Positions 6,769 through 46,072 are shown, numbered from the stretch's first letter. The stretch: DNA of 64,000 bases from Spirochaetales bacterium (GCA_016935735.1 JAFGQK010000300.1:3437-67436); one strand, 5' to 3'. A program made the numbers and translations. Notes: generated by a model not told the origin, from the sequence alone.

Positions 6769-6842
6769 GCCACCTTAGCTCAGCTGGCCAGAGCACGTGA
6801 TTTGTAATCTCGGAGTCCTCGGTTCGAATCCGAGAGGTGGCT
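6769..6842 (+). tRNA. tRNA-Thr (anticodon UGU)
   Basis: Hand-folded cloverleaf. Acceptor stem gccacct/aggtggc of 7 bp. D arm gctc/gagc. Anticodon loop tTTGTAa. T arm ctcgg-ttcgaat-ccgag. 5-nt variable loop. CCA not encoded. Confidence 0.85.
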
Positions 6843-19692: not shown

Positions 19693-19807
19693 TAACTGAA
19701 AAATTATAGAGGGCAAGTTGTAATTTCCTAAATAAATTTTAACTCTTGACAGGGAAATTTGTCTTAAAAGAATCTATTTTAAACAAACAGAAAGAAGGAT
19801 TTTGTTT

Positions 19808-20773
19808 ATGGAAAATGATATTTTTCAGAAAGATTTGAAACACATAGGGATTGTCCTTTCATTTACATGTAATCTGAAGTGTAAAATGTGTAAATTATGG
19901 ATGAAGCCCCCATTGTCGCTTTCCCTGGATTCGATCAAGAGTATATTAAAACAGGCTAAAGCATTGGGTGCAGACATTTTTACACCTTTCGGGGGGGAAC
20001 CGGTATTAAGAAAAGATATTTTTGAAATTTTTAGTTATGCCCACCAATTAGGGTATGATATTGAATTTGTGACAAATGGAACTTTAATCAATGAGCAGGT
20101 AGCTGAAAGATTATTCAAGTATATATCCGGGATTTCCATATCCATTGAAGGATCGAAAGAACATCACGATGAAATAAGAGGTAATGGGACTTTTGATAAG
20201 GCAATCTCCGCAGTCAAGTTTCTGACAAAGTACAAACGCCGGGATGCGAATATCTGTTTAACTATGGTCGTAACCAAAAATAGCTATAAATATATGAAAA
20301 AACTTGTCGATTTGGCCAGTGAGCTCAAAGTTGATAAAATTTTTTACCAACCTTTCAACAGGGCCCAGGCAAGAAAAGAAAATGTACATGACTTTCTGGT
20401 CCCGGCAGTCGAAATTCCCGTTTTGCAGCTGGAAATAGAGAGTACCATCAATTATGCAATGCACAAGAATGTACAATTGGGTTCTGTTATCGAATTTAAA
20501 TTGATCCCTTTATACTTTAAACTAAATGGTAAAATAAAACCAACAAAAGGATGCTTCTTACCATACCATGATATGTTAATTATTCCCAATGGTAAAGTAT
20601 TTGCTTGTCCCTTCGAGCGTATTGAAGTAGGTGATATCAATGAGAACAATCTTGACTATATCTGGAATTCCGAAAAATATGAAAAACAAAGAGAAAAAGC
20701 AAGATTAAAAAAATGCCGCGGTTGTCTTGCCAATTGCTCAGATTTGGATTCATATAAAATAGAAAGTGCATAA
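19808..20773 (+). CDS. Radical SAM protein with C-terminal SPASM/twitch Cys-rich domain
   Basis: FTCNLKCKMCK CxxxCxxC. C-terminal CFLPYH ... ACPFE ... CRGCLANCSD. SD gaaagaagga 8 nt upstream of the ATG at 19808. The listed ORF begins at an upstream TTG. Confidence 0.8.
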   Translation: MENDIFQKDLKHIGIVLSFTCNLKCKMCKLWMKPPLSLSLDSIKSILKQAKALGADIFTPFGGEPVLRKDIFEIFSYAHQLGYDIEFVTNGTLINEQVAERLFKYISGISISIEGSKEHHDEIRGNGTFDKAISAVKFLTKYKRRDANICLTMVVTKNSYKYMKKLVDLASELKVDKIFYQPFNRAQARKENVHDFLVPAVEIPVLQLEIESTINYAMHKNVQLGSVIEFKLIPLYFKLNGKIKPTKGCFLPYHDMLIIPNGKVFACPFERIEVGDINENNLDYIWNSEKYEKQREKARLKKCRGCLANCSDLDSYKIESA

Positions 20774-23626: not shown

Positions 23627-23708
23627 GGGGAGATACCCGAGTGGCCAAAGGGGGCAGACTGTAAATCTGTTGGCTCAGCCTTCGAAGGTTCGAATCCTTC
23701 TCTCCCCA
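23627..23708 (+). tRNA. tRNA-Tyr (anticodon GUA), long variable arm
   Basis: ggggaga ... cccgagtggccaaaggg ... cagaCTGTAAAtctg ... long variable arm ... ggttcgaatcc ... tctcccc-a. Close to the E. coli tRNA-Tyr pattern. CCA not encoded. Confidence 0.85.
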
Positions 23709-30946: not shown

Positions 30947-30970
30947 CTTTTATCTAAAAGTGATTATAAA

Positions 30971-31345
30971 AGACGGGCATGATCATCGCTGTTACTTTTA
31001 TGTAACAGAGGAAAGTCCGGGCTCCATAGAGTAAAATACCGGGTAATACCCGGGTCTGCCCTGTAACAGGGTGGAACAGAAAGTACCACAGAAAAAATAC
31101 CGCCGGCACTCAATTATTGAGTGCAAGGTAAGGGTGAAAAGGCGGGGTAAGAGCCCACCACCTGGCCGGCAACGGACAGGGTATGGCAAACCTTATTTGG
31201 AGTAAAGCCAAGCAGCAGAGGATTACTCGTCCATAATCTGCGGGTAGGCTGCATGAACAAAATGTGAAAGCATTCTGTCAAGACAGATGATGATCACTAT
31301 ACCATGAAAATGGTATTTTACAGAACCCGGCTTATATGCCCGTCT
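30971..31345 (+). ncRNA. rnpB: RNase P RNA (bacterial type A)
   Basis: GAGGAAAGTCCGGGCTCCATAG (P4 5' strand) and ACAGAACCCGGCTTA (P4 3' strand). Perfect 10-bp P1 agacgggcat/atgcccgtct. GNRA-like and conserved A-rich loops (gtaagagcccaccacc, aggtaagggtgaaaaggcgg). Confidence 0.9.
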
Positions 31346-31443
31346 CTTTATTAATTAAGTTTATACACCTCTTTTATAAAAGGAATTGACTTTTTCTTTT
31401 TTTTTCTGTTTAATAAAATCTAACATAGAGAGTTATTATCATT

Positions 31444-38207: not shown

Positions 38208-40694
38208 TTGATAATGAACTGTATTATTCCGGAAAAAGATTTATGGGACTCACTTCTCCGGGTAGAGAAACCGGGAAGATATACCGGTGGTGAGTATGGA
38301 ATAACTGCGAAACATGATAAAGCAATTCTTTATGTAGCGCTTTCGTATCCGGATCTCTATGAAATCGGTATGTCCAATCATGCCATAAGGATACTCTATT
38401 GTCTTTTAAACTCACTTCCCGGTATTTCCTGTGAGAGAGTTTTTGCCCCTGCCCCGGATTTTGAAGAAGAACTCCGAAAAAAGAACATACCTCTCTATTC
38501 CCTCGAATCGGGCCTGCCTCTTAATGAGTTTGACATTATTTGCTTTTCACTGGGATATGAGTTGAATGCAACGAATGTTCTTACCATCCTTGACCTTGGC
38601 AGGGCAGGTATCAACAATGAGGACAGAGGCGAAAGCGATCCTGTGGTCATAGCAGGGGGACCTGCCGTGACAAACCCTGTCCCATTTGCTTCTTTTATTG
38701 ATTGCTTTTTTATCGGGGAGGCAGAAGGGAAGGTAGAAGAGCTTTTTACAGGTCTTTGTTCCATTAAAAGGAAAGGTCATAACAGGCAGGAGTTACTGCA
38801 TTATATACTTCAAGAACCATCAGTCTGGAGCTCTGCAAAACCGGATCATAAAGCTTCAAAAAATATATGGATGGGTTTTTCAACCGGAACCCTGCATCAA
38901 CATTTTCCTGTCCCCAATATTTCCGTTATCCAGGATCAGGGAGTAGTGGAAATAATGCGGGGTTGTCCGAACATTTGCCGTTTTTGCCATTCGAGTATTT
39001 ATTACAGGCCTTTCCGGCTAAAAATGCCCTGTCATATCTTTTCTGAAGTTGAGCATCTTATTCTTTGCGGCGGTTACAGGCGAATAACCCTTACTTCGCT
39101 TTCCTCCGGGGATTACCGATATATTGATGAGCTTGTACGTATTCTTTCTGCCAGGTATAAACAGGCTGGGATATCCTTTTCCCTCCCGTCTTTGCGAATC
39201 GACAGTCTGGCTCTTTCTCTTTTAAAGGATATCTCCGAGGTAAGAAAAAGCGGACTCACCTTTGCCGTAGAAACTCCCGATCCCGCGTGGCAGGCAGGGG
39301 TAAATAAAAGTGTTTCCTTCGAAAAGACGATGTCCCTTTTACTGGAAGCGAGAAAGATGGGGTGGAATAAAGCCAAATTCTACTTTATGATCGGACTTCC
39401 CCTGTACCAGTGTGATGAATCAGATATGATTATTGAGTTTGCCAGAGAAGCAAGAAAAAGAACAAAGATGCAGCTTACCATCGCCATATCCACTTTTATT
39501 CCCAAACCCCATACTCCTTTTCAATGGGCTCCGCAACTTTCAGAGGATATCGCTTTTGAAAGAATTATGCATATTAAAAGGAATCTTTCTGAAAAATATT
39601 TCAAGATAAGTTATCATTCACCTTTTTCATCATTACTTGAAGGGATTATTTCCAGGGGAACAAAAGAAGTTGGAGATATTATTTTTAATGCATACAAAAA
39701 AGGTGCACGTCTGGATGCCTGGGATGATTATATAAGAAGAAGTATCTGGCGAAATGCAATCGGGGAAGCAGGGACAGATATCATTTCCGGTACTCTTGGT
39801 GCGAGAAAAAGTGACGAACCTTTACCCTGGGATTCCGTGGATCTGGGTGTATCAAAACAATATTTAAAGAATGAATGGGAAAAAGCAGTAAAGCGGGAAT
39901 ATACAGAAGCATGCAGTTCATCGTGTTCCCACCCTTGCGGAATATGCGGGAGAAAAATAAAAGTTATGGATACTATCGTAAAAAAAGAAATTACAGATCT
40001 TGAATCCCTTACCCCTTTTCGTTTGCAGGCCACTAGCCGCAAAAGGCTTCTTTTTTCCTATTCAAAGACCGATAAAGCAGTATTTTTATCTCATCTTAAC
40101 AGCATGCATATATTTGAGCGTGCATTATTGCGTGCAGGATATCTTCCTTATTTTACAAAAGGGTTTAATCCGAAACCCACCCTGGAGTTTGCATCGCCTC
40201 TTGCCCTGGGGGTTGAATCCAGGGATGAGATAGCTGCCTGTGAGATAGAGAATTTCGATTCCATAGAGAAGTTTAAAGAAAAGATCAATAACGTCTTGCC
40301 GGAAGGATTTTCTTTAGAAAAGTGTAAAGAACTTCCTTCGTATAAAAAAGGAACAAAAAAAATATCCCTTGCACGATTATACTGGGGATCTGATTATTTA
40401 CTCACCCAGGGAAAGGAAATTAAGCAGATTATCCATATTTTTTCATTGATTAATAATGTAAACGAGGAAGAGAGTGAGCTCTATGAGTTTTCACCTGCCC
40501 TTGATTCCTTTTTTATGCTGGGAAAAGATATATGTATCCGGTGGAAAAAGATAGAGAAAAAAGGATGTAATATCATTCATTTTCTGGAAAGATTAACCGG
40601 CAGACTGCATTTTGAATCCGGGATAAGGATTATACGGATGAAGACACTCATAAAGACCGGAGAAGAGCCAGGGTGTTTTTTTGATGTCCTGTGA
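38208..40694 (+). CDS. Fused radical SAM protein (TIGR03960-like N-terminal half) plus DUF2344/TIGR03936-like C-terminal half
   Basis: EKPGRYTGGEYG N-terminus. CPNICRFCH CxxxCxxC. Length 828 aa. Confidence 0.65.
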   Translation: MIMNCIIPEKDLWDSLLRVEKPGRYTGGEYGITAKHDKAILYVALSYPDLYEIGMSNHAIRILYCLLNSLPGISCERVFAPAPDFEEELRKKNIPLYSLESGLPLNEFDIICFSLGYELNATNVLTILDLGRAGINNEDRGESDPVVIAGGPAVTNPVPFASFIDCFFIGEAEGKVEELFTGLCSIKRKGHNRQELLHYILQEPSVWSSAKPDHKASKNIWMGFSTGTLHQHFPVPNISVIQDQGVVEIMRGCPNICRFCHSSIYYRPFRLKMPCHIFSEVEHLILCGGYRRITLTSLSSGDYRYIDELVRILSARYKQAGISFSLPSLRIDSLALSLLKDISEVRKSGLTFAVETPDPAWQAGVNKSVSFEKTMSLLLEARKMGWNKAKFYFMIGLPLYQCDESDMIIEFAREARKRTKMQLTIAISTFIPKPHTPFQWAPQLSEDIAFERIMHIKRNLSEKYFKISYHSPFSSLLEGIISRGTKEVGDIIFNAYKKGARLDAWDDYIRRSIWRNAIGEAGTDIISGTLGARKSDEPLPWDSVDLGVSKQYLKNEWEKAVKREYTEACSSSCSHPCGICGRKIKVMDTIVKKEITDLESLTPFRLQATSRKRLLFSYSKTDKAVFLSHLNSMHIFERALLRAGYLPYFTKGFNPKPTLEFASPLALGVESRDEIAACEIENFDSIEKFKEKINNVLPEGFSLEKCKELPSYKKGTKKISLARLYWGSDYLLTQGKEIKQIIHIFSLINNVNEEESELYEFSPALDSFFMLGKDICIRWKKIEKKGCNIIHFLERLTGRLHFESGIRIIRMKTLIKTGEEPGCFFDVL

Positions 40695-41181
40695 AAGTGT
40701 CATATTTTTTTTATTTTATTGGAAAATTGTTGAAATAAATTAAAAAGTATAGTAAAATAATTTTGTCTGCTTGTAATAGATTATTTATAAGGGGAGACAT
40801 GCCATAATAGGGGAGTCGACCGCAGAACCCTGTTGATCTGAATAAAGCAGATGTTTCCGGATACAATAGTATTCCGGTGTTTAAGGGAAGGGAATCAAGC
40901 AGGAAAATCCTTACAGGCGGGTAGAGGGGACTTCTTATATCCTTAATAATGTACGGTTTTTCATTTTTTGATTAGGGCAGCACTATAACCGTTTTGTATG
41001 TGTATTTAAAGTTTATCAGCTGAAAAATTTATACTATAAACTATCCTGAAGACTCCTGTTCAATAAACAAAAAAATACTATGTTAAATTTTGCTTTTATA
41101 ACAGAGATATACAATCATTGCAGATCACCACCTTTATAAATATGTTGTATATAAATATACATATTAACGAGGAGGTTATTA

Positions 41182-41505
41182 ATGGCAAAAATAAATAACA
41201 TTAAATATAAAATACTGTTCGAAGAAAAGATACCATACTGGTGGCGATTTGCTTATCTTATTCCTGATCCCTGGATTGAACGTCTGGTCGATATAGATCA
41301 ATTTTCTGCAATTGTCCAGGGTAAAAATACGAAGTTTGGGGAATATGTACAAAAATATGTGAAAGCTTTTATAGAAGAAGGTAAAATGCCGCCATCCACT
41401 ATTGCCGGAACGATTATAAATATTGCAGAAGATATTATGGCCGGACGTAAGCCAACAATACGTGCAGGAGATTATATAGCAATACAAAATGAGATGCGTG
41501 ATTAA
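41182..41505 (+). CDS. Hypothetical 107-aa protein (no Cys, aromatic-rich segment KIPYWWRFAYLIPDPWIERL) immediately upstream of a SPASM radical SAM gene
   Basis: Strong SD gaggagg 7 nt before the ATG. No recognisable family. Confidence 0.45.
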   Translation: MAKINNIKYKILFEEKIPYWWRFAYLIPDPWIERLVDIDQFSAIVQGKNTKFGEYVQKYVKAFIEEGKMPPSTIAGTIINIAEDIMAGRKPTIRAGDYIAIQNEMRD

Positions 41506-41569
41506 ATAGATTTAGTACTTTTTTAATGGGCAGGATAAACCCTGCCCATTATTAAAAATGGAGGCTTGA

Positions 41570-42619
41570 ATGGATTATAAGAATTTTCCTTTTGTCATTG
41601 GATGGGAATTAACACTCCGTTGTAATCTTCAATGTAAACATTGTGCATCCTCTGCCGGATATCCCAGAGATAATGAATTAACACTAGATGAATCTCTTTC
41701 TATTTGTGAACAATTACCGGATTTATTGGTGAATGAGGTTATTTTTACGGGCGGAGAACCGCTATTATATAAAAATTGGCATACCATTGCATTAGCATTG
41801 CATAATTGTGGGATAAAAACCGGTATGGTTACAAATGGTTTACTTATAGATGACAAAATAATCGAGAATATGAAAAAAAGCGGGATGAATTGTATAGGAA
41901 TCAGTATTGATGGTATTGGAGAATTACATGATCGACTCCGGTGTTTTCCCGGGGCATTTGAGAAAATTATAAAAAATATAGAAAATTTAAGGAGAAATAA
42001 TATTAATATTACAGTGATTACATCAATAACACACGAAAATATCCTGAAACTTGATGATATATATCACTTAATCACACAGTTAGGAGCCTGGAAATGGCAG
42101 CTTCAACCTATCTTCCCTTTAGGCCGGGGAAACGGGAATTCACATCTTCATTTAACAGAGGAACAATTTGTTAGTCTGGGAAAATACATCTTTCATTTAC
42201 AGCCAGTAGCATTAAAAAAAGGGTTGGAAATAGTCCCTGCCGACAGCTGCGGGTATTTTTCTTCTCTTGATATTCCTGAGTTTAACTGGCAGGGATGCGG
42301 TGCAGGCCGATTCAGTTGCGGAATTATGAGTAATGGCTATATTAAAGGTTGTCTCTCCTGGCCTGATACAATAATTGAAGGGGATCTTCGAAAGGATGAT
42401 TTATGGACTATCTGGTTCAGACCTGATTCTTTTTCAAAACAACGTTTTTTTTCAAAAGAAGACATGAACGGCAATTGCATTGATTGTGAAGTTGCAATGG
42501 AATGCGGCGGAGGATGCCAGGCAATGTCTTTAGCAAAGACCGGGATGTGGAGAGCAGATCCATATTGCTATCGTAGAATATTAAAGGAAAAGGGTACTCT
42601 TTTGAAAAATCCACATTAA
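41570..42619 (+). CDS. Radical SAM protein with C-terminal SPASM domain (PqqE/anSME-like peptide- or protein-modifying type)
   Basis: LTLRCNLQCKHC CxxxCxxC. C-terminal CGAGRFSCGIMSNGYIKGC ... CIDCEVAMECGGGCQAM. Confidence 0.8.
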   Translation: MDYKNFPFVIGWELTLRCNLQCKHCASSAGYPRDNELTLDESLSICEQLPDLLVNEVIFTGGEPLLYKNWHTIALALHNCGIKTGMVTNGLLIDDKIIENMKKSGMNCIGISIDGIGELHDRLRCFPGAFEKIIKNIENLRRNNINITVITSITHENILKLDDIYHLITQLGAWKWQLQPIFPLGRGNGNSHLHLTEEQFVSLGKYIFHLQPVALKKGLEIVPADSCGYFSSLDIPEFNWQGCGAGRFSCGIMSNGYIKGCLSWPDTIIEGDLRKDDLWTIWFRPDSFSKQRFFSKEDMNGNCIDCEVAMECGGGCQAMSLAKTGMWRADPYCYRRILKEKGTLLKNPH

Positions 42620-42790
42620 TAACTTTTGGAGGTTTGACTGTGAAAAACATCCGTTTGAAAAGGATACCTTACCTGTTTCTTTGATTATTTACCGGAAACA
42701 TTGAAAAATTCCGCCGATAGTGCTACTGTATGTAGCGATTAAGATTGCCGGCATAAAATATTTCTACGCGATTATTATTTGGAGGTAATC

Positions 42791-43588
42791 ATGAAAGTTG
42801 AAAATAAAATAATACACATTATCAAAAAAGGAATGATTTTATTTTTATTTATCATTCTTGTATTCGCTTGTGAATTCCAGGGAATAGATGAAGGAGAGAA
42901 TACCACTGGAATAACTGATGCGGATAGATCCGGGCAGCCGGATTTCACTGTTATAATCAGCCACACATATGCGGAATTGGTCATTGGCCAATACGAAACT
43001 TTCAAGGCATTTGTCATCAACTCGGGAACAGCAGCTTCCGCAACCGCAGTACTAAAATTTCAGATCGGCGGCAGTGTTACCTTTCATTCCATACCTGTTC
43101 TTCAACCGGGGGGACATTTTTCCGTATGCCGTACTGTCCATTTCGATACTGCCGGAACATATTTAGTTACGGCGATAGCGGATGTATATAATACGGTTGC
43201 GGAAAGTAATGAAACCAATAACACCAAACAGATAACGATTCCTGTAAAAGATTACGGTAAACCCGATTTGTATATCAGCACCCTCACGTATGCGGGGACC
43301 CCAAAAGTTGGAAATTTTATGAATTTCATCATCCAGGTCAAGAATAACCTGTTTTGCGGGATGTCTCCGGCCACGAGAGTAAATGTGCGGATAGGTGGGG
43401 AAACATTCGGACAATTTTACAATATTCCGGCACTCGCCCCGGGACAGGGGTATAACCTCTCAAGAGGCTGGACGCCGTCTGTAGCAGGGAATTTTCGAAT
43501 TACGGCTGTAGCCGATGCAGACAATGATGCGAGTGAAAAGAGTGAAAGCAACAATACGAAATACATATCTGTTCAGGTGACAAATTAG
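42791..43588 (+). CDS. Lipoprotein with two CARDB-like beta-sandwich domains
   Basis: Lipobox LVFAC. Two internal repeats ending ESNETNNT / ESNNTKY typical of CARDB domains. SD ggagg 7 nt before the ATG at 42791. Confidence 0.5.
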   Translation: MKVENKIIHIIKKGMILFLFIILVFACEFQGIDEGENTTGITDADRSGQPDFTVIISHTYAELVIGQYETFKAFVINSGTAASATAVLKFQIGGSVTFHSIPVLQPGGHFSVCRTVHFDTAGTYLVTAIADVYNTVAESNETNNTKQITIPVKDYGKPDLYISTLTYAGTPKVGNFMNFIIQVKNNLFCGMSPATRVNVRIGGETFGQFYNIPALAPGQGYNLSRGWTPSVAGNFRITAVADADNDASEKSESNNTKYISVQVTN

Positions 43589-44114
43589 AACACTGTTATG
43601 TGACAGATGAATGGTAAGGGTTATCTTATTCATACTGCAATCATACCTCAACGAAAGTCGAGGCACGATAGTAATGGTAAATGAAAAGGGGCGGTGGAGA
43701 GGATATTCCTTTCTGTCGCTCCTTTGTTTTGTCGTAACAATGCTGCCCCGGCCCGGTAACGGTATTCTTAAAAAAATGATAAGCCAGGAAAAAAATTATA
43801 TAAAAATAATAATCAGCTCTATAATTCTTATAATCATATCTTGCATTAGTGGAAGCAGCCTGCTATAGTATTTTGTATACAGGGTTTTACCTGGAAGATC
43901 ATACTGGATTTTTTGTGAAATTGCCATTGCTGCCTGTAATCCCGGGATTAAATCTTCTGTTCGGATTTCCTCTTTTATGAGGAGCTATCGATCTGTGCAA
44001 TAATTAAGGAAGAAGATGATTATTATACAAATGACATTGCGGCAGGGTATTATAGCGCTTCTTTTTGAAACCGTAAGAATGGTAATACCCCGGAATTAAC
44101 AAAGGGGGTCGATA

Positions 44115-44936
44115 ATGGACAGGGCAAAAATAAAGTTTAAGCAGGAAAAGGAAACCCTACTCATTCCACTTTACTGTAAGTATCTGGAAAGCCGGAAAGT
44201 ATTACCGATTATTAAAGATGAAAAGGCAATCGAAATAGTAAACAGTATTGACTATGATTTTGAACACCTCGAGATTCCTGAACAAACATACGTTACTATT
44301 TGTATAAGGGCTAAGCAATTTGATAAGTATGCCAGGAATTATTTGATGAAAGTGCCTGACAGTGTTTTCATTCATCTGGGATGTGGCCTCGATAGCCGGT
44401 TTCATCGTGTCGATAATAATAACGTTGAATGGTATGATCTGGATTTTTCGGAGGTTATCGAAATAAGAAAATATTTTTATAATGAGAGTGATAAATATCA
44501 TTTCATTTCATCATCTGTAATGGAATTGAACTGGTTGGAAAAAATAAACCCTGAAAACAGACAGATAATAATTCTGGCAGAAGGTTTGTTTATGTATTTA
44601 AAAGAGGAAGAAATAAAATTATTATTTAAAGCTATTAAAAATAAATTTTCTAAAAGCATTATTATTTTTGACTGTTATAGTGAAATAACAGCAAAAGGTA
44701 TTAAAAATCATCCGTCAATAAAAAGGACCGGGGCAGTAATTAATTGGGGAATAAATAATGCAAAAGAGATTGAATCATGGGATGATAACATACATCTTAT
44801 TGAAGAATGGTATTTTACGCAGTCTGAAGAACTGAGTAAACTGGATTCAGGCTATAGAGTTTTATTTAAAATTATGGGATTATTCCCATTGGCAAAAAAA
44901 GCACATAGGATATTAGTATTTCAATTGGGAATGTGA
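44115..44936 (+). CDS. Class I SAM-dependent methyltransferase of the TcmP/leucine-carboxyl-methyltransferase-like family
   Basis: LIPLYCKYLES ... VFIHLGCGLDSRFHRV ... ILAEGLFMYL, resembling PF04072-type O-methyltransferases. Confidence 0.5.
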   Translation: MDRAKIKFKQEKETLLIPLYCKYLESRKVLPIIKDEKAIEIVNSIDYDFEHLEIPEQTYVTICIRAKQFDKYARNYLMKVPDSVFIHLGCGLDSRFHRVDNNNVEWYDLDFSEVIEIRKYFYNESDKYHFISSSVMELNWLEKINPENRQIIILAEGLFMYLKEEEIKLLFKAIKNKFSKSIIIFDCYSEITAKGIKNHPSIKRTGAVINWGINNAKEIESWDDNIHLIEEWYFTQSEELSKLDSGYRVLFKIMGLFPLAKKAHRILVFQLGM

Positions 44937-45196
44937 ATGAATGTACCAGTTCAATCAGCCTCATTTCCAAAACTGCTGATTTCCGCTCACTTTCATTGCT
45001 GGGATTAATTACACCACCACGAACAGGGGTAAAGGAATATGTGCAACTCCGGCTACAAAGCCACTTTATTATATCAGGCGACCCTGCAAATCATTCCGGA
45101 TTATCAATCCGCGAACTCTTTATGACAGATGAAATCTATATAAATGATATAATAATAGGTTCATTAACCTTAAAGGTGCAAAACAAGGAGGATATT

Positions 45197-46072
45197 ATGA
45201 ACAATTTTATTATTGATAAAGAGAGATGTACGAAATGCGGACTATGTTCTGCAATCTGTGTGGATAATACCATTACTCAAAAAGGGAATGATTTCCCTTA
45301 CATAGACTCTGAAATAAACTGTAAATCCTGTGGGCATTGCATTGCGATTTGTCCTAATAATGCGATCATGCATAAAAACATGGATATGAAGAGTTTTTTC
45401 CCCATTACAAATGGTATCACAGGGAATCAACTGAAGAATTTTCTCTTATCTAAACGTTCCGGGAGACATTACCTGGATAAACCGGTTGATAGTACGACAA
45501 TAAATAAAATTCTTGAGGTTGCAGCGATGGCTCCTACGGCGAAAAACAGGCAATGGCGCAGTTTTATTGTACTTACAGATAGAGAAAAAATCAGAGAACT
45601 TGAAAAATTACTTTTGCACAATGTCAAAAAGATGATAAGCCAGTTACGCTTTGCAGCCGGCACATTAGGGAAGTTACTCATTAAAGATCCCTATGCAAGG
45701 GAACTTTTGGGATTTTTACACAGGGACAGTGAAGAATTAATAAAAGAGGAAAACAGGGAAAAATCCCTCATTTTTTATAATGCCCCCTGTATTATTTTTA
45801 CCTATGCCTGGCACGATAACGGGATGGGGGGAGACGTCTTTGCCAGGGAGCATTGTGACTATATGGCAAGCTATGTGATGTTGCAGGCCCATGCCATGGG
45901 ATTAAGTACATGCCTGATAGGTTATGCATCAACTGTTCCCAAAATATTACAAAAATTCCTGAAAGTCCCTAAAGGATATAAGGTATATAATGTCATTACC
46001 CTTGGTTACCCGAAATATCGATTCAGGCGGACAGTACCCAGAAAACCGGCATATGATATTTTATGGATTTAG
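45197..46072 (+). CDS. Ferredoxin-domain / nitroreductase-family fusion protein
   Basis: 2x CxxCxxCxxxCP ferredoxin motifs (CTKCGLCSAICVDN, CKSCGHCIAICPNN). Nitroreductase-like RRSGRHYLDKPV ... segment. Start placed at the ATG 8 nt after aaggagg. The listed ORF extends to a GTG at 44933. Confidence 0.65.
   Translation: MNNFIIDKERCTKCGLCSAICVDNTITQKGNDFPYIDSEINCKSCGHCIAICPNNAIMHKNMDMKSFFPITNGITGNQLKNFLLSKRSGRHYLDKPVDSTTINKILEVAAMAPTAKNRQWRSFIVLTDREKIRELEKLLLHNVKKMISQLRFAAGTLGKLLIKDPYARELLGFLHRDSEELIKEENREKSLIFYNAPCIIFTYAWHDNGMGGDVFAREHCDYMASYVMLQAHAMGLSTCLIGYASTVPKILQKFLKVPKGYKVYNVITLGYPKYRFRRTVPRKPAYDILWI

Follow-up and report, generated by a model that had tools for sequence, protein, structure and literature searches.

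A SPASM radical SAM enzyme genetically linked to a small protein, its candidate substrate, in bacteria and archaea

Radical S-adenosylmethionine (SAM) enzymes carrying a SPASM domain have been a repeated source of new chemistry, as in the biosynthesis of pyrroloquinoline quinone (PQQ), mycofactocin, sactipeptides, streptide, darobactin and triceptides, and what opened up each of these systems was the identification of the substrate that belongs to the enzyme. The question of what such an enzyme acts upon is raised again by a locus at positions 41182-46072 of a 64,000-nucleotide stretch of a Spirochaetales metagenome-assembled genome (MAG; GCA_016935735.1, JAFGQK010000300.1:3437-67436), hereafter the window. 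The window is low in GC (35-43%), and the locus carries, all on the (+) strand, genes for a 107-residue protein, a radical SAM/SPASM enzyme, a CARDB lipoprotein, a methyltransferase and a ferredoxin-nitroreductase. A first-pass annotation had suggested that the five genes could form a single modifying system. All five open reading frames (ORFs) were found at the same coordinates and their domain assignments are borne out by Pfam and NCBIfam.

The comparison of related loci showed that one protein domain is strictly linked, at the gene level, to a SPASM enzyme that has its catalytic motifs intact and lacks a RiPP recognition element (RRE; RiPP, ribosomally synthesised and post-translationally modified peptide). 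We infer that the small domain is the substrate of the enzyme since it is the sole conserved partner, since it is never seen fused to the enzyme and occurs fused to other proteins with the radical SAM gene still following, and since a strong Shine-Dalgarno sequence together with a hairpin in five of ten intergenic spacers fits a product made in excess of the enzyme. On balance we favour, with somewhat more confidence than doubt, a dedicated maturase that modifies the co-encoded small protein domain, possibly by a crosslink at a conserved tyrosine.

Conservation of the gene pair

The small gene (41182-41505) encodes a 107-residue, cysteine-free protein that matches no named family and belongs to an unnamed group of proteins of about 100 residues. 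Direct reading of the sequence places a GAGGAGG Shine-Dalgarno element at 41169-41175, 6 nt upstream of the ATG, in agreement with the first-pass annotation. The radical SAM gene follows at 41570-42619 and encodes a protein of 349 residues with Pfam Radical_SAM (99.8 bits) and SPASM (24.4 bits against a cutoff of 21.5) domains. In 16 of 16 independent loci the small gene is directly followed, on the same strand, by an orthologous SPASM radical SAM gene, with a spacer of 0-80 nt in the twelve loci measured. Twelve of these loci were reached through the small protein (the window, L001, L002, L007, L009, L011, L015, L017 and L018-L021) and four through the enzyme at 47-67% identity (L003, L004, L013 and L014). 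The small homolog precedes the radical SAM gene in Methanoregula (L007, L008) and Candidatus Kuenenia (L009, L010); conversely, the radical SAM gene is preceded by a member of the small family in an Acidobacteriaceae MAG (L004), in Bryobacterales (L013) and in Methanothrix (L014). Among the hosts are Spirochaetales, Acidobacteriaceae, Bryobacterales, Ca. Kuenenia, Methanoregula and Methanothrix. A hidden Markov model scan of six-frame translations confirmed both genes in all loci, while profile scans returned one locus in a genome collection (the contig of L004) and four in a metagenome collection. The functional link between the two proteins suggested at first reading is therefore supported, homologs of the small protein being followed by the orthologous radical SAM gene at every one of the 16 loci.

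The genes flanking the pair differ from locus to locus. An all-against-all blastp comparison of stop-to-stop ORFs of at least 15 residues, covering 1.5 kb on each side in ten loci, detected no third conserved gene or short precursor, and inspection by eye of the upstream short ORFs showed nothing common to the loci. None of the 15 other loci has a CARDB protein, a methyltransferase or a nitroreductase beside the pair. As the flanks differ and no other ORF is shared, these three genes are local neighbours only, and the conserved unit consists of just two genes, found in anaerobic bacteria and archaea. The five-gene system is accordingly abandoned. For the same reason it is very improbable that the enzyme matures the adjacent CARDB lipoprotein, as had also been considered, or that the five genes constitute one pathway. 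Such a role could be read from the position of the CARDB gene, which comes next after the radical SAM gene on the same strand with a terminator-like hairpin only beyond it, and from TIGR04133, a radical SAM family found with a lipoprotein, which is the fourth-best model for the enzyme. However, the score of 165 bits is far under the TIGR04133 cutoff of 425, a spacer of 171 nt separates the two genes, and the lipoprotein is absent from the pair elsewhere.

Within the pair, the pairwise identities of the small protein and of the enzyme correlate modestly (r = 0.36, a value reached by 17 of 5000 permutations). The 64-nt spacer of the window contains an 11-bp stem-loop (41524-41551) with a minimum free energy of -21.8 kcal/mol and a z-score of -3.99; one of 200 shuffled sequences was equally stable. 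Strong hairpins occur in five of the ten spacers analysed (window, L002, L004, L007 and L013; z from -2.76 to -4.3) and are mutually non-homologous. The spacer stem-loop may act as an attenuator or as an mRNA stabiliser, thus setting the ratio of small protein to enzyme.

At the Ca. Kuenenia locus, the pair is followed after about 0.9 kb by a tandem array of at least three genes for B12-binding radical SAM proteins (L009:7418-10402), and on the upstream side of the small gene the ORFs resemble pieces of another gene of this type. Two unrelated loci (L004:7743-9368 and L015:8458-8895) have a FUR-family regulator downstream of the pair, at distances of about 0.7 and 2.2 kb, and in one of them AhpC-TSA and CMD genes adjoin it.

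The radical SAM enzyme and its relatives

The catalytic apparatus of the enzyme is complete. The CX3CX2C motif (C18/C22/C25) and the SAM-binding GGEP motif (G61-G62-E63-P64) are invariant among 119 orthologs, and the seven-cysteine SPASM motif is fully represented (C243, G256-x4-C261, C303-x2-C306-x5-C312-x3-C316 and C333), where it would serve two auxiliary [4Fe-4S] clusters. All ten cysteines are 100% conserved in the same set of orthologs. Since the radical SAM core starts at about residue 10, the protein has no N-terminal RRE.

The enzyme scores under every NCBIfam cutoff. The best models were two peptide maturases whose alignments cover nearly the full length of the enzyme, namely TIGR04103 (nif11-class peptide radical SAM maturase 3; 186.8 bits against 725) and TIGR03913 (GDL-motif-peptide-associated radical SAM/SPASM maturase; 177.6 against 591.75), followed by AhbD (168 against 500), TIGR04133 (164.6 against 425) and, in fifth place, NirJ (148 bits). 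Membership of TIGR04103, TIGR03913 or TIGR04133 was rejected as all three fall under their equivalog cutoffs. A further difference from the first two is that the partner is not a Nif11/NHLP leader. Our literature searches found nothing on the TIGR04103 and TIGR03913 families. PqqE (TIGR02109) reached 94.8 bits against 381 and MftC (TIGR03962) 126.4 against 265; a cofactor maturase of the PqqE/MftC type was rejected on these scores, on the lack of a PqqD match at E<=10, on the all-helical model of the partner and on the lack of a short conserved ORF.

The comparison with the anaerobic sulfatase-maturating enzyme (anSME) is instructive, as this too is a SPASM radical SAM enzyme without an RRE that acts on a protein and not on a leader-bearing peptide. 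In contrast, the enzyme under study scores 74.8 bits against the anSME cutoff of 349.45 (TIGR03942), its partner has no C/S-x-P-x-R motif, and no sulfatase gene lies between 38 and 50 kb in the window. The first-pass annotation had argued against an anSME role, and judging from these scores the enzyme is indeed neither anSME nor PqqE.

The nearest solved structures, all distant, are SkfB, BlsE, SuiB, CteB, MoaA and PqqE, with SkfB the closest (72 bits, over the radical SAM core only). A PADLOC search showed a resemblance to pVip confined to the generic radical SAM core (residues 8-203) and left the small protein unmatched, and a known anti-phage defence system was rejected on this ground. Neither gene of the pair belongs to any curated family of Pfam (2025) or NCBIfam (June 2026), and literature searches centred on protein substrates of SPASM enzymes, on the TIGR accessions and on the GDL motif turned up no description of the pair.

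The small protein and its possible modification

The 107-residue protein has no cysteine and 14 aromatic residues, and the motif KIPYWWRFAYLIPDPW spans residues 16-31. It matched nothing in Pfam, NCBIfam, PADLOC or PHROGs, and no significant sequence match was found in the PDB. A word-indexed search with this protein retrieved five relatives only (45-51% identity). A profile search over 1.84 billion cluster representatives returned 152 clusters (50% identity) at E<=1e-3, 108 of them at E<=1e-10, and a second profile search returned 326 clusters (90% identity) at E<=1e-5. The members are labelled 'hypothetical protein' at source and come from Methanoperedenaceae, Methanoregula and Ca. Kuenenia among other hosts; the small domain of those examined matched no Pfam family even at E<=10. 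These matches indicate a real, unnamed family, and the partner is a protein of about 100 residues and not a short peptide, consistent with the non-standard length noted at first reading.

All 110 aligned members have N80 and G96, and 99% have D97, while Y25 (96%), Y98 (95%), I74 (94%) and D84 (90%) are near-invariant and F52, P70-P71, G88-R89 and R94 each reach at least 78%. R or K occurs at position 94 in 99% of the members, one of A, S and T at position 100 in 90%, and among the variants seen Y98 is substituted solely by F or H, His being found in P0248 and P0271. No cysteine occurs in 82 of the 110 members. An AlphaFold2 model built on an alignment of 88 sequences is all-helical and devoid of beta-sheet, with a predicted local distance difference test (pLDDT) score above 90 for residues 50-107, which form three helices (50-66, 75-86 and 95-106). 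This C-terminal domain bears N80, D84, G88-R89, R94 and G96-D97-Y98. Confidence is low over the first 45 residues or so, which include the (W)WRFAYLI motif and its near-invariant Tyr25. The family combines a variable N-terminus with a conserved C-terminus. A Foldseek search of the model against the PDB returned nothing at E<=0.001.

At one locus whose enzyme is 67% identical to that of the window (L003:4117-4150), a TAG stop occupies the Tyr98 codon (..RAGD, then the stop) and the frame beyond it is intact (IVLQNAYRG, then a stop). The nearest cluster representative, P0127, has Tyr at position 98; a read error, a nonsense mutation and a recoded codon are all possible.

The first-pass annotation had drawn attention to the tryptophan-rich segment as a possible target of modification and had raised the possibility of an RRE or a Nif11/NHLP-like leader. 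W20 is present in 32% and W21 in 20% of the family, hence the tryptophans mark a subfamily and not the whole family, and what defines the target is probably not this segment; the residues kept family-wide are Y25, N80, D84 and G96-D97-Y98. An RRE was rejected since no PqqD match was found at E<=10, the model contains helices only and Foldseek gave no PDB match, and a Nif11/NHLP leader was rejected since no match appeared at E<=10 and the conservation is reversed, with the N-terminus variable and the C-terminus conserved; nor was a conserved Gly-Gly cleavage site seen in the alignment or in its column table.

These data also bear on a classical RiPP pathway, in which an N-terminal aromatic core (PYWWRFAYLIPDPW here) would be crosslinked in the manner of streptide, darobactin or triceptides, with the C-terminal domain serving as a follower and a protease releasing the product. 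The roughly 45 variable, low-confidence N-terminal residues next to a conserved C-terminus mirror the logic of core and recognition sequence, W20, W21, R22, A24, Y25, L26, P28 and D29 are invariant in the close subfamily, a hairpin lies 3' of the small gene, and proteases occur near some loci (C25-like at L001 and L011, Trypsin_2 at L003 and an M64 fusion at L015). On the other hand, these proteases belong to unrelated families and concern only about four of the 16 loci, the pair has no conserved companion gene for a protease, a transporter or immunity, and the tryptophans are not kept across the family. The fusion proteins add a further difficulty, as the N-terminal segment there sits inside an enzyme of 200-400 residues, and we consider a RiPP pathway of this kind quite improbable.

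The small domain is in fact found at the C-terminus of several larger proteins. It follows a Peptidase_M64 domain in P0179 and P0196, an AhpC/TSA-like redoxin in P0147, P0159 and P0232, an ALGX-like SGNH fragment in P0255 and a methenyltetrahydromethanopterin (methenyl-H4MPT) cyclohydrolase in P0156, the last being possibly a gene-calling artefact. A recurrent unannotated domain precedes it in P0133, P0134, P0248, P0271 and P0371, hence in at least five distinct clusters; this domain of about 100-190 residues (..YPIV..GDW..YI..PGIAIID..AIRHGSYD..) has no Pfam match. Both fusions whose loci were examined, L015 (M64) and L017 (redoxin-like), are still directly followed by the radical SAM gene, and no fusion of the small domain to the enzyme was detected by length among 150 listed of the 152 family matches at E<=1e-3. 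The redoxin-like fusion gene of L017 (L017:3860-4630) looks split, with a 40-residue ORF carrying the AhpC/TSA-like N-terminus (MPGVGDPGPNFTGYDF..) whose end lies 19 nt short of the start called for P0147; the cause may be a frameshift or faulty assembly. The AhpC/TSA-like fusions and the FUR neighbours described above provide hints of a link to redox or oxidative stress.

Taking the small protein as the substrate, the enzyme would recognise the folded three-helix C-terminal domain, and reductive cleavage of SAM would generate a 5'-deoxyadenosyl radical that takes a hydrogen from a conserved site in the small protein. The likeliest outcome would be an intramolecular carbon-carbon (or carbon-oxygen) crosslink involving Tyr98 or Tyr25. 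The first candidate lies in the motif G-D-[Y/H/F]-[I]-[A/S/T], whose aromatic-X-X layout resembles that of three-residue cyclophane substrates; for radical SAM enzymes, bonds have been described that join Tyr, His or Phe with the C-beta of an Ala, Ser or Asp at +2 (PMC11002830). The second candidate lies in the flexible N-terminal segment [V/I]-[A/M]-Y-L-[I/V]. Two layouts can be envisaged, one in which the C-terminal domain is a docking handle and the flexible segment with Tyr25 is modified, and one in which the reaction takes place within the invariant patch around G96-D97-Y98. The modified protein would be the end product, with no sign of a cleaved, exported peptide. A crosslink at a conserved tyrosine is favoured, with low confidence as to the exact chemistry, decarboxylation and epimerisation being possible alternatives. 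Whatever its nature, the pair probably represents an undescribed protein modification.

Known systems provide partial parallels to this scheme. In the PQQ system PqqE is likewise a SPASM radical SAM enzyme without a fused RRE and has a small gene directly upstream, the substrate PqqA also lacks cysteine and is modified at a conserved tyrosine (a Glu-Tyr C-C bond), and conservation of the product keeps the modified residues invariant. PqqA, however, has only about 20-30 residues and is accompanied by PqqD, a winged-helix RRE, whereas here a single all-helical partner of about 100 residues is present and equivalents of PqqB, PqqC and PqqF are lacking. QhpD also acts on a protein of about 100 residues that stays a protein, namely QhpC, the small subunit of quinohemoprotein amine dehydrogenase. 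QhpD makes thioethers from Cys to Asp or Glu, whereas 82 of the 110 members of the small family have no cysteine and no dehydrogenase subunits are encoded nearby.

Triceptide precursors are short peptides, some with repeated motifs; the motif considered here occurs once only and lies where a helix of a folded domain begins. The triceptide maturases HaaB, ScaB, YxdB and MscB are SPASM radical SAM enzymes that bond the ring of an aromatic residue (Trp, Phe, Tyr or His) to the C-beta at position +2, including Tyr/His-Ala and Phe-Ser (PMC11002830). The conserved motif [Y/H/F]98-x-[A/S/T]100 has the same layout, but none of the triceptide families is among the top 25 NCBIfam matches of the enzyme. 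A tyrosine-based crosslink of the triceptide kind may be formed, though at a motif other than the one pointed out in the first-pass annotation. By analogy the pair would work like the enzyme and cognate-substrate pairs of PQQ, mycofactocin, QhpC and triceptide maturation, although it falls outside the PqqE and MftC families, differs from QhpD and QhpC and is not specifically close to the triceptide enzymes.

A number of points weigh against the small protein being the substrate. Adjacency establishes a functional tie and is silent on which of the two proteins acts on the other, and most of the loci are short metagenomic contigs. The G-D-Y motif lies at the start of a confidently predicted helix, a less obvious fit for SPASM enzymes, which usually bind extended segments, and the enzyme is no closer to the triceptide, StrB and DarE models than to many SPASM families. 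The whole C-terminal domain is conserved and could be a binding interface instead of a reaction site. The gene for PqqD lies just upstream of that for the RRE-less PqqE and PqqD is sometimes fused to other Pqq proteins, so that adjacency alone leaves room for a chaperone role. Finally, the tetrapyrrole enzymes AhbD and NirJ rank third and fifth among the models, with 168 and 148 bits.

Several of these points would equally fit a small protein that is an accessory subunit or chaperone similar to PqqD or MftB and presents some other substrate to the enzyme, be it a different protein, a short peptide or a small molecule (a tetrapyrrole, for instance): the enzyme lacks an RRE of its own, the small gene occupies the place that pqqD has immediately in front of pqqE, the conservation of the C-terminal domain is interface-like, and the AhbD and NirJ scores recall tetrapyrrole chemistry. 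Nevertheless, no client is apparent, as no third ORF of at least 15 residues is conserved within 1.5 kb in the ten loci, none was seen by eye upstream, and no heme or tetrapyrrole genes adjoin the pair in any locus. Moreover, the small protein has no PqqD or RRE match even at E<=10, its all-helical model without beta-sheet is unlike a winged-helix RRE, and the domain is fused to unrelated enzymes and, within the matches listed above, not to the radical SAM enzyme. We therefore regard a chaperone role as unlikely.

A further alternative is that a protein radical is kept on the small protein, as in GrcA/YfiD, with the SPASM enzyme as its activase, since the segment T-I-R-A-G-D-Y-I-A resembles R-V-x-G-[YFW]. 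G96 is fully conserved, position 94 is R or K in nearly all members, only about 10 residues separate the motif from the C-terminus, and the radical glycine of GrcA and PFL sits in the C-terminal region as well; a small stand-alone protein adjoining a radical SAM gene would also fit. The register differs, though, with G-D-Y in place of G-Y, no Gly_radical match was found even at E<=10, and the motif is predicted to be helical (pLDDT about 90) and not at the tip of a beta-hairpin. To our knowledge, glycyl-radical activases belong to the PflA family and have no SPASM domain, whereas the adjoining enzyme is of the SPASM and not the PflA type. A glycyl radical protein was rejected on register, fold and enzyme type, and its probability is minimal.

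The favoured reading, a maturase acting on the co-encoded small protein, has a more specific and doubtful variant, in which the enzyme installs a new feature in a portable three-helix domain, either a protein-derived redox or radical cofactor or a structural staple, at the Asn80/Asp84/Gly96-Asp97-Tyr98 patch. Anaerobic bacteria and archaea may use this domain alone or appended to M64 peptidases and peroxiredoxin-like proteins. If true, the domain would define a new class of post-translationally modified protein module and not a RiPP natural product.

What would be new in the maturase reading is a SPASM enzyme with a folded, cysteine-free and sometimes enzyme-appended protein substrate, and the pair could harbour new chemistry or a protein-derived cofactor. 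With its linkage in 16 of 16 loci, its presence in both prokaryotic domains and its position outside Pfam, NCBIfam and the PDB, the pair offers a directly testable two-gene system for new protein modification. It also provides a handle on hundreds of genes labelled 'hypothetical protein' or 'radical SAM protein' in methanogens, anammox bacteria, Acidobacteriota and spirochaetes.

Neighbouring genes in the window

The CARDB lipoprotein gene most likely starts at the ATG at 42791, which has a GGAGG Shine-Dalgarno sequence in front, and ends at 43588; the mechanical ORF begins at 42779. Its product has two CARDB domains (Pfam CARDB, 112.7 bits) and the lipobox LVFA/C, cleaved before the cysteine. 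A consensus scan placed downstream of it a terminator-like hairpin (43685-43725; 19 pairs, 8 of them G-C, then GTTTTGT), which is a pattern match only and probably ends the unit that starts at 41182. The CARDB gene is possibly co-transcribed here with the small and radical SAM genes. Given the position of this hairpin, the five genes probably fall into two or more transcription units, with the genes for the methyltransferase and the nitroreductase in a separate one. An 85-residue mechanical ORF spanning the hairpin (43611-43868, +) is probably no gene; its last 31 codons resemble an orphan lipoprotein signal (MISQEKNYIKIIISSIILIIISC...) with a stop 8 residues later.

The methyltransferase (44115-44936) is a class I enzyme of the LCM family (Pfam LCM, 44.1 bits) and scores 40.8 bits against TIGR00027, under the cutoff of 93.55. 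The ferredoxin-nitroreductase fusion combines two Fer4 motifs, for a 2x[4Fe-4S] ferredoxin, with a Nitroreductase domain (84.1 bits). Its mechanical ORF begins at 44933, but codons 1-88 match no domain and the domains begin at about residue 87, and for this reason the start was moved to the ATG at 45197, the most likely one, which is preceded by AAGGAGG; the gene ends at 46072. With the revised start, the 4-bp overlap with the methyltransferase gene is probably not real.

The 487-bp spacer upstream of the small gene (40695-41181) gave no Rfam match at E<=1, folds in an ordinary way on both strands (z = -0.67 and -0.52) and contains no convincing short ORF; a G-rich patch lies at about 40780-40950. 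Immediately upstream of this spacer, a gene at 38208-40694 (+) encodes an 828-residue protein in which a B12-binding radical SAM part of family TIGR03960 (532 bits, above cutoff) is fused to a radical-SAM-associated part of TIGR03936/DUF2344, which brings the total to three radical SAM genes in 25 kb. The third is the other SPASM-type gene of the window (19802-20773, +). Its product is under every NCBIfam cutoff, with AhbD (101 bits) and a tungsten-cofactor radical SAM maturase (93 bits) as best models, and is only distantly related to the family studied here (86 bits). No homolog of the small protein adjoins it, and no second copy of the small protein was found in the window. Housekeeping RNAs are represented by a bacterial class A RNase P RNA (30970-31350; 259 bits) and by tRNA genes at 6769-6842 and 23627-23708.

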